Assembly: GCF_050920415.1 (NCBI RefSeq)
Contig: NZ_CP169309.1
Length of the DNA stretch: 64,000 nucleotides
DNA from: Escherichia coli
GTDB lineage: Bacteria; Pseudomonadota; Gammaproteobacteria; Enterobacterales; Enterobacteriaceae
Reading direction: 5' to 3' (one strand)
Shown here: positions 16,138-22,453 of the stretch, in pieces
Numbering within the stretch: position 1 is the first letter of the stretch
How the letters are laid out: the number at the start of each line of letters is the position of its first letter
The notes under the pieces: model-generated
The model's database searches: none
What the model was told of the DNA's origin: nothing
Seen by the model: only the letters and a program-made list of their open reading frames with translations
Program-made: the position numbers and the translations under genes

Positions 16138-16950
16138 ATGATCATTACACGAGCAGACCTGCGAGAATGGCGTATCGGAGCGGTGATGTATCGCTGGTTC
16201 CTGCGCCATTTCCCACGCGGCGGTAGTTATGCCGATATTCATCATGCACTTATTGAGGAAGGATATACGGACTGGGCGGAGAGTCTGGTTGAGTATGCGT
16301 GGAAAAAATGGCTGGCGGATGAAAACTTCGCGCATCAGGAAGTTTCTTCTATGCAAAAACTGGCCATAGATCCCGGAGATAGACCATTTTGCAGTCAGTT
16401 TGCCCGCAGCGACGATCATGCTCGCATCGGCTGTTGTGAGGATAATGCCAGAATCGCAACTGCTGGGTATGCCGCGCAAATTGCCAGTATGGGTTATAGC
16501 GTGCGGATTGGAAGTGTCGGCTTTAACAGTCACATTGGCAGCTCCGGTGAACGCGCACGGGTTGCTGTAACCGGTAATTCTTCGCGGATAAGCAGCGCTG
16601 GAGATAGTAGTCGGATTGCGAATACCGGAATGCGAGTACGCGTTTGCACATTGGGTGAACGGTGTCATGTCGCCAGTAATGGTGACCTGGTGCAAATCGC
16701 CAGCTTTGGCGCAAACGCCAGAATTGCCAACAGCGGCGACAATGTACACATCATTGCCAGCGGTGAAGATTCAACAATAGTGAGCACGGGCGTGGTCGAC
16801 TCAATTATTCTCGGGCCAGGGGGAAGCGCCGCACTGGCATATCATGACGGCGAAAGAGTTCGCTTCGCCGTCGCCATTGAAGGTGAAAACAATATTCGAG
16901 CCGGAGTCCGCTATCGCCTTAATGAACAGCATCAGTTTGTTGAGTGCTGA
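16138..16950 (+). CDS. ydhT: uncharacterised protein YdhT with nonapeptide repeats
   Basis: 270-aa ORF; last gene of the ydhY cluster. Confidence 0.88.
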   Translation: MIITRADLREWRIGAVMYRWFLRHFPRGGSYADIHHALIEEGYTDWAESLVEYAWKKWLADENFAHQEVSSMQKLAIDPGDRPFCSQFARSDDHARIGCCEDNARIATAGYAAQIASMGYSVRIGSVGFNSHIGSSGERARVAVTGNSSRISSAGDSSRIANTGMRVRVCTLGERCHVASNGDLVQIASFGANARIANSGDNVHIIASGEDSTIVSTGVVDSIILGPGGSAALAYHDGERVRFAVAIEGENNIRAGVRYRLNEQHQFVEC

Positions 16951-18566: not shown

Positions 18567-18691
18567 TGTTACTTACCTGTACGCATTCTTTCGAATTTAG
18601 TGTTATCAGATAAGTTTGGTTGAAATTTTTAGAATTTGAGAAATTTCAGACAGGGATGAAAAGGGCGCTAACCGCCCTTGGTTAAAATCTG

Positions 18692-18997
18692 TCAGGCGAG
18701 TTTTGCCTGATTGATTTGACTCAGTGGCTCATTGACATCGAAAACTTTGGCGACAACTTCCTCAACGCCGAGATTTTTCAGTCGGGCAGTATGTTTTTCC
18801 AGATAGGCAAGGGCGCTTTTTTCATCAGTGAAAAGGTAGATCCCACCGGCTTCGTGGTTCTTTTCACTTTCTGTCCATACCTTCCACAGAAAACCAGGTT
18901 CCTGATTAATTGACTCAGCAAGCGGTTTAAGCTGCTCAGCCATTGCGTCGCCAAATGGGCCATTAAAAGCAAAATGAAGTTGTAACAAAGTTGCCAT
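18692..18997 (-). CDS. ydhR: putative monooxygenase-like protein YdhR
   Basis: 101-aa ORF recognised as YdhR. Confidence 0.85.
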
Positions 18998-19104
18998 AGC
19001 GATTCTCCTTCTGATAACGCATACGAAGACAGTGTAAATCTTTTAACGTATTGGATACAGAGAAGAAACAGAGGGAAAAAGGAGAAGACCAGATTAAGAA
19101 AATC

Positions 19105-19181
19105 TGGTGCGTCCGAGTGGACTCGAACCACCGACCCCCACCATGTCAAGGTGGTGCTCTAACCAACTGAGCTACGGACGC
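19105..19181 (-). tRNA. valW: tRNA-Val (anticodon GAC), downstream copy
   Basis: 77-nt cloverleaf with 3' CCA; anticodon loop CTTGACATG; valV/valW naming assigned by transcription order only. Confidence 0.9.
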
Positions 19182-19185
19182 AGGA

Positions 19186-19262
19186 TGGTGCGTTCAATTG
19201 GACTCGAACCAACGACCCCCACCATGTCAAGGTGGTGCTCTAACCAACTGAGCTATGAACGC
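19186..19262 (-). tRNA. valV: tRNA-Val (anticodon GAC), upstream copy
   Basis: 77 nt; same anticodon; differs from the neighbour by compensatory changes in the acceptor and T stems. Confidence 0.9.
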
Positions 19263-19288
19263 AACGTTGTAGGTGACAACGGGGACGA

Positions 19289-19317
19289 ATATTAGCGGCA
19301 GAGTGGGAAGGTGGCAA
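19289..19317 (-). promoter_or_regulatory. candidate promoter for the tRNA-Val pair (-35 ttgcca, 17-bp spacer, -10 taatat, GC-rich discriminator)
   Basis: Read on the minus strand; discriminator tcgtccccg is typical of stringently controlled stable-RNA promoters. Confidence 0.45.
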
Positions 19318-19568
19318 GAGGCAAAACGTATTTTTCTGCGGTATTTCGACCGTTTGCAGAGCTTTTAAGCAAATTGGCTATATTTTGTTGATTTGCAAGG
19401 GCGATTTTTATTCAGGATCGCATTTACATCTGACACAACCCAATAATCTTTATCAGAGTTTAAACAGAGTTGTTTGCCACCATCTCAAAATCTGTCGTGG
19501 ATAAATCCTCCGTAGCCTTTACACTTAGGTAGCAATAAAGGCACACAGATGCAGCAAAGGAATAAATC

Positions 19569-20825
19569 ATGGGATCTGATGCGAAAAACTTGATGAGCGA
19601 CGGGAACGTGCAAATTGTTAAGACCGGCGAGGTCATTGGCGCGACGCAACTTACTGAAGGTGAGTTAATTGTTGAAGCTGGCGCAAGAGCCGAAAATACC
19701 GTGGTCACGGGGGCCGGTTGGTTGAAAGTGGCAACCGGTGGGATCGCCAAATGCACACAGTACGGCAACAATGGCACGCTATCGGTCAGTGACGGTGCCA
19801 TTGCCACAGATATTGTTCAGTCAGAGGGAGGCGCAATTAGTCTCTCTACGCTCGCTACGGTTAATGGCCGCCATCCAGAAGGTAAATTTAGCGTTGATCA
19901 AGGTTATGCCTGCGGTTTGTTGCTGGAAAATGGCGGTAACCTGCGTGTACTGGAAGGCCATCGCGCGGAAAAAATCATTCTCGATCAAGAGGGCGGCCTG
20001 TTGGTCAATGGGACAACCTCAGCGGTCGTGGTAGATGAAGGTGGTGAATTGTTGGTGTATCCAGGTGGGGAAGCCAGCAATTGTGAGATTAATCAGGGCG
20101 GCGTTTTTATGCTGGCGGGGAAAGCCAGTGATACATTGCTTGCTGGTGGCACCATGAATAATCTCGGTGGTGAAGACTCTAACACTATTGTTGAGAATGG
20201 AGCCATTTATCGTCTGGGGACGGATGGCCTTCAGCTCTATAGTTCCGGTAAGACGCAAAACCTGTCCGTTAATGTGGGTGGTCGGGCTGAAGTGCATGCT
20301 GGTGCGCTGGAAAACGCGGTAATACAAGGTGGGACAGTGATCTTGTTGTCACCCACCAGCGCGGACGAAAATTTTGTCGTAGAGGAAGATCGCGCACCGG
20401 TTGAACTGACCGGGAGTGTTGCATTACTGGACGGCGCTTCAATGATTATTGGCTATGGCGCAGATCTGCAACAATCATCGATTACTGTACAGCAGGGCGG
20501 TGTGTTGATTTTCGATGGCAGCACGGTAAAAGGTGACAGTGTCACTTTCAATATTGGTAACATCAATCTGAATGGTGGAAAACTGTGGCTGATCACTGAT
20601 GCGGCAACGCATGTGCAACTGAAAGTGAAACACCTGCGCGGAGAGGGAGCGATTTGCCTGCAAACCAGTGCGAAAGAAATTTCACCTGACTTCATCAATG
20701 TGAAAGGGGAAGTTAACGGTGATATACACGTTGAGATAACCGATGCCAGTCGGCAAACTCTGTGTAACGCACTGAAACTACAGCCAGACGAAGACGGGAT
20801 TGGCGCAACGCTCCAGCCTGCGTAA
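19569..20825 (+). CDS. ydhQ: autotransporter-adhesin-related beta-helix protein YdhQ
   Basis: 418 aa; Gly-rich degenerate repeats; no N-terminal signal peptide and no C-terminal beta-barrel. Confidence 0.88.
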   Translation: MGSDAKNLMSDGNVQIVKTGEVIGATQLTEGELIVEAGARAENTVVTGAGWLKVATGGIAKCTQYGNNGTLSVSDGAIATDIVQSEGGAISLSTLATVNGRHPEGKFSVDQGYACGLLLENGGNLRVLEGHRAEKIILDQEGGLLVNGTTSAVVVDEGGELLVYPGGEASNCEINQGGVFMLAGKASDTLLAGGTMNNLGGEDSNTIVENGAIYRLGTDGLQLYSSGKTQNLSVNVGGRAEVHAGALENAVIQGGTVILLSPTSADENFVVEEDRAPVELTGSVALLDGASMIIGYGADLQQSSITVQQGGVLIFDGSTVKGDSVTFNIGNINLNGGKLWLITDAATHVQLKVKHLRGEGAICLQTSAKEISPDFINVKGEVNGDIHVEITDASRQTLCNALKLQPDEDGIGATLQPA

Positions 20826-20831
20826 AAACAC

Positions 20832-20865
20832 AGGCGCAACCCGTGAAGGTTGCGCCTTGTCTTTA
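20832..20865. terminator. terminator hairpin between convergent ydhQ and mdtK
   Basis: Stem aggcgcaacc-cgtgaa-ggttgcgcct followed by tgtctttatt. Confidence 0.6.
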
Positions 20866-22260
<1,395 letters not shown>

Positions 22261-22453
22261 TTATATGAGAGACTAAAAAGCCGCCTGAATGGGCAGCAAA
22301 AAGAAGAAGCAGGGGAAATTCAGTCTATTGTAGCGAGGATTTATTAATTCTCCAGTGAAAAAATAGCCATTCTTACCCCTTCACTGGTAAGGGCGTTTTC
22401 CACCTGCTATTGTGCTGAACAGAATGTCTTAACTGATTTCAGGAGTTGTGAGT

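Follow-up and report, generated by a model that had tools for sequence, protein, structure and literature searches.

A leaderless and barrel-less autotransporter passenger-like protein, YdhQ, under purifying selection throughout the genus Escherichia

The ydhQ locus

The 64,000-nucleotide stretch of Escherichia coli DNA analysed here (contig NZ_CP169309.1 of RefSeq assembly GCF_050920415.1, hereafter the window) contains, between the tandem tRNA genes valV-valW and the efflux pump gene mdtK, an open reading frame (ORF) for YdhQ, a protein that resembles the passenger of self-associating autotransporters (SAAT). The ydhQ coding sequence extends on the plus strand from 19569 to 20825 (418 amino acids plus stop codon), as given by the ORF list, the NCBIfam equivalog NF007409 and the E. 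coli genome annotation. The match to NF007409/PRK09945 reaches 928 bits (cutoff 830) and places residues 1-418 on profile positions 1-418. RefSeq labels the protein 'AIDA repeat-containing protein', in K-12 it is called 'putative adhesin-related protein', and the allele of the window shares 96-97% identity with that of K-12 and with the common E. coli alleles. [quoted passage not shown] Under-appreciated are two further points, namely that the translocator is missing too, and that this truncated form is ancient and under purifying selection.

Both tRNA genes next to ydhQ encode tRNA-Val(GAC) on the minus strand, were found by ARAGORN and Rfam and are annotated in K-12: valV at 19186-19262 (Rfam tRNA, 70 bits) and valW at 19105-19181 (69.6 bits). 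The preliminary description of this locus, made from the sequence alone, let its region start at 19105, which takes in valV and valW because the ORF itself begins at 19569. From valV to the ydhQ start there are 306 bp, and the tRNA pair and ydhQ are divergently transcribed. On the other side, ydhQ converges with mdtK (20866-22239, minus strand), the gene for a MATE efflux pump, which represents a conserved flank and directly abuts valV in other genera. A hairpin at 20832-20857, an inverted repeat with 10-bp perfect arms, serves both strands as common bidirectional terminator of ydhQ and mdtK and is kept at the orthologous Escherichia loci. The gene order of the window, ydhYVWXUT-ydhS-ydhR-valW-valV-ydhQ-mdtK-ribC-cfa-punC, is identical to that of K-12.

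Missing export and translocation elements

A classical type Va autotransporter combines an N-terminal Sec signal peptide, a beta-helical passenger with a complete autochaperone, and a C-terminal alpha-helical linker with a 12-stranded beta-barrel (PF03797). YdhQ possesses the beta-helical passenger, whereas the signal peptide, the linker and the barrel are absent and the autochaperone is incomplete. The Pfam scan gave no match to ESPR or to the autotransporter beta-domain PF03797 in YdhQ even at E<=10. Within the first 70 amino acids, the highest Kyte-Doolittle value of any 10-residue window is 1.19; two homologues with ESPR reach 2.4-2.7. The N-terminus, MGSDAKNLMSDG..., is devoid of a hydrophobic core and carries one basic and two acidic residues among its first 12 positions. 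According to a 2026 toolkit paper, SignalP 6 does not predict a signal peptide for YdhQ either (PMC13101318). At the other end, the ORF stops inside the autochaperone, of which only profile positions 2-78 of 121 are kept.

Furthermore, the boundaries of the gene are closed. Several in-frame stop codons precede the ATG, the terminator follows 7 nt past the ydhQ stop codon, and the stop codon of the convergent mdtK is 41 nt away. Hence, neither end of the ORF can be extended. Since signal peptide and translocator are both absent and the boundaries are not correctable, YdhQ as encoded is not a classical type Va autotransporter, which agrees with the preliminary description; it had reported the lack of both parts and concluded that the product cannot be a secreted autotransporter, unless a corrected start or end restored one of them. 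The flanks of ydhQ, i.e. the 306-bp spacer, which in frame is full of stops, and the 40 bp downstream, show no visible remains of a barrel or of the 5' end of an autotransporter. Among the loci retrieved, no full-length, barrel-containing allele was found at the mdtK-valV site.

Composition, fold and relation to complete autotransporters

YdhQ is rich in glycine (14.8%), acidic (isoelectric point, pI, 4.46) and contains five cysteines. Self-similarity is highest between residues that are 17-19, 36 and 54 positions apart (z up to 4.6 relative to 300 shuffled sequences), which reads as the degenerate rung repeat of a predicted beta-helix. The Pfam family AIDA (PF16168) matches with E 6.5e-29 and 100 bits (cutoff 27) in 4-6 stretches, the best of them at residues 99-159, such that both the AIDA repeats and the approximately 19-residue rung periodicity of AIDA-repeat passengers are present. 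The glycine-rich 418-residue product with degenerate passenger-type repeats, as it had been described initially, was thus correctly recognized. The NCBIfam model auto_Ag43 gave a partial match, and the best match to antigen 43 (phmmer E 7e-26, Ag43-type passengers) covers query residues 27-142. Residues 330-403 (20556-20777, plus strand) form a partial pertactin/autochaperone-like region with the motif L.G.G.f...t....D.l.V.G...G. A search with PADLOC resulted in no defence-system match, and the PHROG matches comprise only unannotated AIDA-like phage proteins.

An AlphaFold2 model, built on orthologs together with six collinear autotransporter segments, is all-beta and of high confidence (predicted local distance difference test, pLDDT, 90.3; predicted template modelling score, pTM, 0.88). 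Low confidence is limited to residues 1-6 and to the acidic loop at 264-274, where pLDDT is below 50. This loop, SADENFVVEEDRA, corresponds to residues 264-276 (20358-20396, plus strand) and is an insertion compared to the aligned passengers; it appears as a gap in all six autotransporter segments of the alignment and is conserved among the YdhQ orthologs. In the multiple alignment, YdhQ is collinear with the passengers of complete autotransporters, and its end 'ATLQPA' aligns with 'AFTLG/AFSLA', directly ahead of the strands '..VEAGAYNYNL..', with which the autochaperone ends. Because the collinear alignment stops inside the autochaperone, YdhQ represents an internal piece of a SAAT-type autotransporter, consisting of approximately 14 rungs and two thirds of the autochaperone, to which a new N-terminus of 12 residues and the specific acidic loop are added.

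Antigen 43 (Flu/Ag43), TibA and AIDA-I, which belong to the SAAT group of type Va, share with YdhQ the right-handed beta-helix of approximately 19-residue AIDA rungs and the pertactin-type autochaperone segment after the helix. However, YdhQ lacks their signal peptide/ESPR, alpha-helical linker and 12-stranded barrel, its autochaperone is cut at about two thirds, and it carries the acidic insertion. It measures 418 amino acids compared to approximately 1,000-1,300 for SAAT autotransporters and shows at most 38% identity to any complete one. Relative to the type 1 autochaperone of pertactin (PF03212, PF18883), residues 330-403 correspond to the first 78 of 121 positions, and YdhQ lacks the terminal strands '..VEAGAYNYNL..', by which the autochaperone is completed and capped in secreted passengers.

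Relatives were sought with HMMER, exhaustively, among 1.84 billion cluster representatives. The YdhQ family consists of a single cluster plus fragments, and the scan revealed no near relative outside the family. The nearest match beyond it is a 1,534-residue autotransporter with ESPR, 11 AIDA stretches and autochaperone (38% identity); the remaining matches, at approximately 36% identity or less, are mostly large AIDA-repeat or autotransporter-type proteins. Four similar-sized AIDA/pertactin proteins (P0056, P0040, P0108 and P0111) were considered as parallel YdhQ-like genes and rejected, as they turned out to be ordinary autotransporters that are contig-truncated or broken. Likewise, P0076, with 53% identity and the same N-terminus a candidate for a distant ortholog, proved to be E. 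coli ydhQ in a frameshift-riddled long-read assembly.

The genes ydbA, yejO, ycgH and yaiT are disrupted autotransporter genes of E. coli K-12 and, like ydhQ, represent autotransporter-derived coding sequences without a complete secretion apparatus. P0040 and P0056, fragments of one disrupted E. coli autotransporter gene family, resemble the C-terminal half of YdhQ. However, the disrupted K-12 genes are strain-level pseudogenes broken by insertion sequences (IS) or frameshifts, whereas ydhQ has clean fixed boundaries, is near-universal in Escherichia and is under purifying selection.

On the sequence level only, residues 149-179 of YdhQ match TIGR04415, the O-heptosylation target strand-loop-strand repeat (43.6 bits, cutoff 30). 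It could be speculated, purely by inference, that YdhQ works in the cytoplasm together with autotransporter biogenesis, for example as decoy or regulator, either for the heptosyltransferases of autotransporters or for factors that prevent SAAT passengers from folding. We regard such a role as highly improbable: the heptosyltransferases Aah and TibC are encoded by accessory genes of a few pathotypes, whereas ydhQ belongs to the core genome.

Distribution and selection

The preliminary description called YdhQ an orphan, which does not hold, because ydhQ is a single-copy core gene found in 5,424 of the 5,426 complete E. coli genomes (at least 80% of the ORF length). Orthologs occur in E. ruysiae (89% identity), Escherichia sp. 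E4742 (86%), E. marmotae (83%), E. albertii (80%) and a deeper lineage (70%). All of them are intact and encode 418 amino acids, except that the deeper lineage has 419 due to one extra codon, and everywhere ydhR/valVW flank the gene on one side and mdtK on the other. The MdtK protein of the deeper lineage shares 95.2% identity with that of the window, a value between E. albertii (97.4%) and Salmonella (92.1%), which makes this lineage basal, or nearly so, within the genus.

No indels were found in the ydhQ alignment of eight taxa. Pairwise ratios of nonsynonymous to synonymous substitutions (dN/dS, Nei-Gojobori) amount to 0.10-0.15 in comparison to five Escherichia species and to 0.048 in comparison to the 70%-identity ortholog, whereby these ratios rest on dS of 0.4-1.0 or more, i.e. 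on nearly saturated synonymous sites. Among the neighbouring genes, mdtK and cfa show 0.012-0.02 and ydhR mostly 0.06-0.09. In a neutral simulation at the observed synonymous distances, 10-16 stop codons accumulated in ydhQ, and not a single open frame was left in 5,000 trials per species. Constraint is unevenly distributed along the protein. The most constrained block in the variable-site profile comprises residues 76-150 (19794-20018, plus strand), the AIDA-type unit nearest to Ag43/AIDA-I, in which approximately 10% of the amino-acid sites vary compared to 30-50% elsewhere, whereas 60-90% of the codons of the block vary. Moreover, the orthologs do not differ in start codon, Shine-Dalgarno sequence or first residues.

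These data bear on the assumption that ydhQ is a non-functional relic, whose frame stayed open by chance or whose DNA serves the neighbouring tRNA genes or mdtK. In its favour, both functional ends of an autotransporter are absent, no function of YdhQ is known, knock-outs are viable and the ydhQ locus is routinely used as neutral integration site. However, a dN/dS near 1 and frameshifts or stops among the orthologs, as expected for a pseudogene, were not observed; dN/dS values of 0.05-0.15 and the genus-wide lack of indels contradict the relic, and so do the stop codons expected under neutrality, the uneven amino-acid constraint at freely varying synonymous sites, the conserved start codon and Shine-Dalgarno sequence, and the detection of YdhQ by mass spectrometry. 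We therefore regard it as extremely improbable. Since low dN/dS and intact frames coincide with uneven amino-acid constraint and an invariant translation start, ydhQ is selected as a protein and is not a decaying remnant; it is a working protein kept by purifying selection across the genus. Hence, of the two options offered initially, a remnant or a cytoplasmic beta-helix protein, the remnant has to be dismissed, while the cytoplasmic protein gains support from published leaderless fusions (PMC13101318; discussed below). The clear vertical conservation that the initial text could imagine to its own refutation does exist, with the same frame and flanks genus-wide; of the defined cytoplasmic function it had coupled to it, none is known.

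Origin of the locus and the tRNA island question

In Salmonella and Enterobacter, valV-valW start approximately 150 bp past the mdtK stop codon and are transcribed away from mdtK, with no ydhQ between them. In Escherichia, the mdtK-valV distance amounts to approximately 1.6 kb and holds ydhQ. The Escherichia-specific segment at 19358-20865 (approximately 1.5 kb) comprises a new terminator, ydhQ, and the ydhQ promoter and leader. Because the mdtK-valV gap is only approximately 150 bp long in the other two genera, ydhQ represents an insert of about 1.5 kb that is specific to Escherichia and lies at the promoter side of the tRNA genes.

The spacer between valV and ydhQ is accordingly composed of two parts. 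The approximately 95 bp upstream of valV (19263-19357) are conserved in Escherichia, Salmonella and Enterobacter and contain, on the minus strand, the valV-valW promoter (-35 TTGCCA and -10 TAATAT at 19317-19289), which is older than ydhQ. The adjoining part with the ydhQ promoter and leader (19358-19568, plus strand) cannot be aligned with the mdtK-valV spacer of Salmonella or Enterobacter and is well conserved within Escherichia, best at 19358-19404 and 19500-19568. A binding site of FlhDC from genomic-SELEX (gSELEX) has been published for the ydhQ/valV spacer, and we considered it as a hint of flagellar control or export of ydhQ. This idea was rejected: the site maps to approximately 19300-19350, inside the valV promoter block, and since this block is shared with genera without ydhQ, the site does not speak for a flagellar control of ydhQ. 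It predates ydhQ and more likely concerns valVW.

On the 3' side of valV-valW, Salmonella harbors the pathogenicity island SPI-2 (from ssaU) and Enterobacter a type VI secretion system (T6SS) cluster. This side varies in Escherichia too, E. albertii having no ydhS and E. marmotae no ydhYVWXUT. The tRNA pair is a true island hotspot on the 3' side of the tRNA genes. It had initially been remarked that tRNA genes are common integration sites, which is correct for this hotspot with SPI-2 and the T6SS cluster, but not for ydhQ on the 5' side.

Could ydhQ nevertheless be cargo of a classical tRNA-targeted island integrated at valV-valW? This possibility concerns only its origin. Like SPI-2 and the other valV-valW islands, ydhQ is lineage-specific DNA in the mdtK-valV-valW neighbourhood; as expected of an island it is missing from Salmonella and Enterobacter, and SPI-2 is said to have been placed at valV by Hensel and colleagues in 1997. 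However, those islands lie 3' of the tRNA genes and measure tens of kb, whereas the ydhQ insert of merely 1.5 kb, fixed genus-wide, is situated 5' of the tRNA promoter. Because integrases act at the 3' end, ydhQ is on the wrong side for integrase-mediated insertion. Moreover, no integrase or mobility gene is annotated beside ydhQ (the neighbours being ydhR, ydhS, ydhT-ydhX, mdtK, ribC and cfa), no extra copy of the tRNA 3' end exists within the 64-kb window, no flanking direct repeats were found around ydhQ, and its GC content (0.48-0.53, about 50%) resembles that of the flanks. The initial remark that integrase, direct repeats and other island hallmarks are not seen is in line with these results. 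An origin as island cargo is thus very unlikely; the insertion with ydhQ is small and ancient and has become fixed in the genus. The comparison refines the map of the valV-valW hotspot, where large islands occupy the 3' side and the promoter side holds a small, old insert.

Leader and regulation

The Shine-Dalgarno sequence AAGGA (19557-19561, plus strand), 7 nt before the ATG, is one of three conserved GGA motifs that are candidate CsrA sites by sequence and conservation. E. albertii, E. marmotae and the 70%-identity ortholog all share it unchanged. Computational work has predicted ydhQ as a CsrA target (PMC5389547). The expression of ydhQ is probably tuned post-transcriptionally via the conserved GGA motifs over the ribosome-binding site. 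Because the leader RNA does not fold better than shuffled sequences (z 0.37), the idea of CsrA control draws solely on these motifs and the literature.

Cellular location and possible function

In our opinion, YdhQ is probably an exapted autotransporter-passenger fragment that is expressed, folds in the cytoplasm and is selected for a function other than classical surface adhesion. It would derive from the passenger of a type Va autotransporter of the AIDA-I/Ag43/TibA type. This fragment may have arrived, or may have been cut down, once in the ancestor of Escherichia, with the mdtK terminator on one side of its 1.5-kb insert and the valV-valW promoter on the other, and would have been inherited vertically since. 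Because it has no route across the inner or outer membrane, native YdhQ should stay in the cytoplasm and could fold there as a soluble, acidic (pI about 4.5) beta-helix. It may bind a partner via its surface and act as a binding scaffold, most likely through the block 76-150, and would not be a surface adhesin. The purifying selection across the whole genus implies that there is some other, probably intracellular, function.

Published data on expression and location are consistent with the cytoplasmic protein. Whole-cell proteomics quantified YdhQ and reported a 5.5-fold fall in vanillin (PMC6561319). In the toolkit paper, YdhQ is treated as 'leaderless autotransporter'; unlike SAAT passengers, YdhQ-pFAST fusions to which no signal peptide had been added fluoresced and were located in the cytoplasm, and agarase fused to leaderless YdhQ showed no activity outside the cell (PMC13101318). 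The co-purification with EF-Tu (PMC2672614) and the recovery among RNA-associated proteins (PMC11066096) also count in favour of this reading.

However, it must be mentioned that several points weigh against a cytoplasmic, exapted protein. No cytoplasmic function or partner of YdhQ is known. The reported localisation stems from fusions, and none was found in the literature covered for native untagged YdhQ. The constraint on ydhQ is real but moderate, since its dN/dS is 5-10 times that of the housekeeping neighbours. Cysteine makes up 1.2% of YdhQ compared to a median of 0.45-0.5% in homologous passengers, 9 of the 94 homologues reach at least 1%, and three cysteines are conserved; at only about 2-3 times the passenger median, this content would be a weak marker of cytoplasmic life. 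The co-purification of YdhQ with EF-Tu (PMC2672614) is of limited value, because EF-Tu is a common co-purification contaminant, and for a protein as acidic as YdhQ (pI 4.46) direct RNA binding is unlikely. A phenotype in early adhesion is attributed to ydhQ in a secondary source, a positive-selection scan (PMC9110714, citing Roux et al. 2005). The same scan lists some positively selected sites in ydhQ, a pattern more usual in exposed proteins, and counts the gene among those for biofilm and antibiotic resistance (PMC9110714). Finally, extracellular-vesicle proteomes include the COG to which YdhQ belongs.

The last of these observations favour the view that YdhQ is a surface or secreted adhesin, which promotes initial adhesion and leaves the cell via a non-classical route such as export without a leader, the type III pathway of the flagellum, vesicles or a piggy-back passage with other self-associating autotransporters. 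Indeed, the adhesins Ag43 and TibA have the same SAAT-type fold, the spacer between ydhQ and valV contains the FlhDC site, and the toolkit paper reports display activity when an exogenous signal peptide is added to YdhQ (PMC13101318). Nevertheless, such an adhesin is unlikely. YdhQ has neither signal peptide nor barrel, the leaderless fusions remained in the cytoplasm or without external activity, and the FlhDC site belongs to the valV promoter block of genera without ydhQ. Furthermore, among the passages of the toolkit paper on 'barrel' that were covered (12 of 13), none discusses the missing barrel of YdhQ, and the display readouts could reflect a periplasmic location or leakage (PMC13101318). 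For the display result, there is no known mechanism, and surface-display claims for a scaffold without barrel need a mechanistic check.

Orthogonal organic phase separation (OOPS) recovered YdhQ among 17 unannotated proteins as RNA-associated (PMC11066096). Together with the EF-Tu co-purification and the divergent transcription from valV-valW, this recovery hints at a role linked to the translation/RNA machinery. That YdhQ acts on the cytoplasmic translation/RNA machinery or, alternatively, reaches the surface without signal peptide or own barrel, appears quite unlikely to us. If the former were true, YdhQ would be the first SAAT-type fold with a non-secreted function; exposure at the surface without leader and barrel would be equally unorthodox.

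Irrespective of its function, ydhQ is found in essentially every E. coli, yet it is annotated or cited as 'adhesin' or 'autotransporter', and has even served as display anchor (PMC13101318), although both defining devices are missing. A cytoplasmic, exapted YdhQ would imply that productive folding of a SAAT passenger does not require vectorial secretion, a point of relevance for models of how autotransporters fold. Moreover, in evolutionary terms ydhQ is not neutral, regardless of its use as 'neutral' integration site.

Additional observations in the window

The region 18600-22300 is 100% identical to E. coli MFDS1022581. Compared to approximately 5,420 other complete E. coli genomes, it shows only about 96.4-97.5% identity, and 99% is reached by only 4-7 genomes; dS relative to K-12 amounts to 0.09-0.13 in ydhQ, mdtK and cfa. 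Given the low identity and these dS values, the source looks like a rare, divergent E. coli lineage. In one genome of the spread sample, E. coli FORC 064 (NZ_CP022664.1), an IS3-family insertion is found inside the ydhR-ydhQ-mdtK stretch, which aligns in two pieces with approximately 1.3 kb extra.

A full-length match to the Rfam family RF02194 'HPnc0260 bacterial antisense RNA' (112 bits, gathering score 59) is located at 18981-19143 on the plus strand, antisense to the valW 3' end with its terminator and to the ydhR 5' region, and a second, weaker and partial match is antisense to valV. Farther away, ydhT (16138-16950, plus strand) encodes 270 amino acids, and short degenerate repeats (..ARIxxxGxxxxIxSxG..) form the C-terminal half of its product. 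The NCBIfam YdhT equivalog is the sole match, with no Pfam match in the scan, and the repeats suggest another solenoid-like protein.

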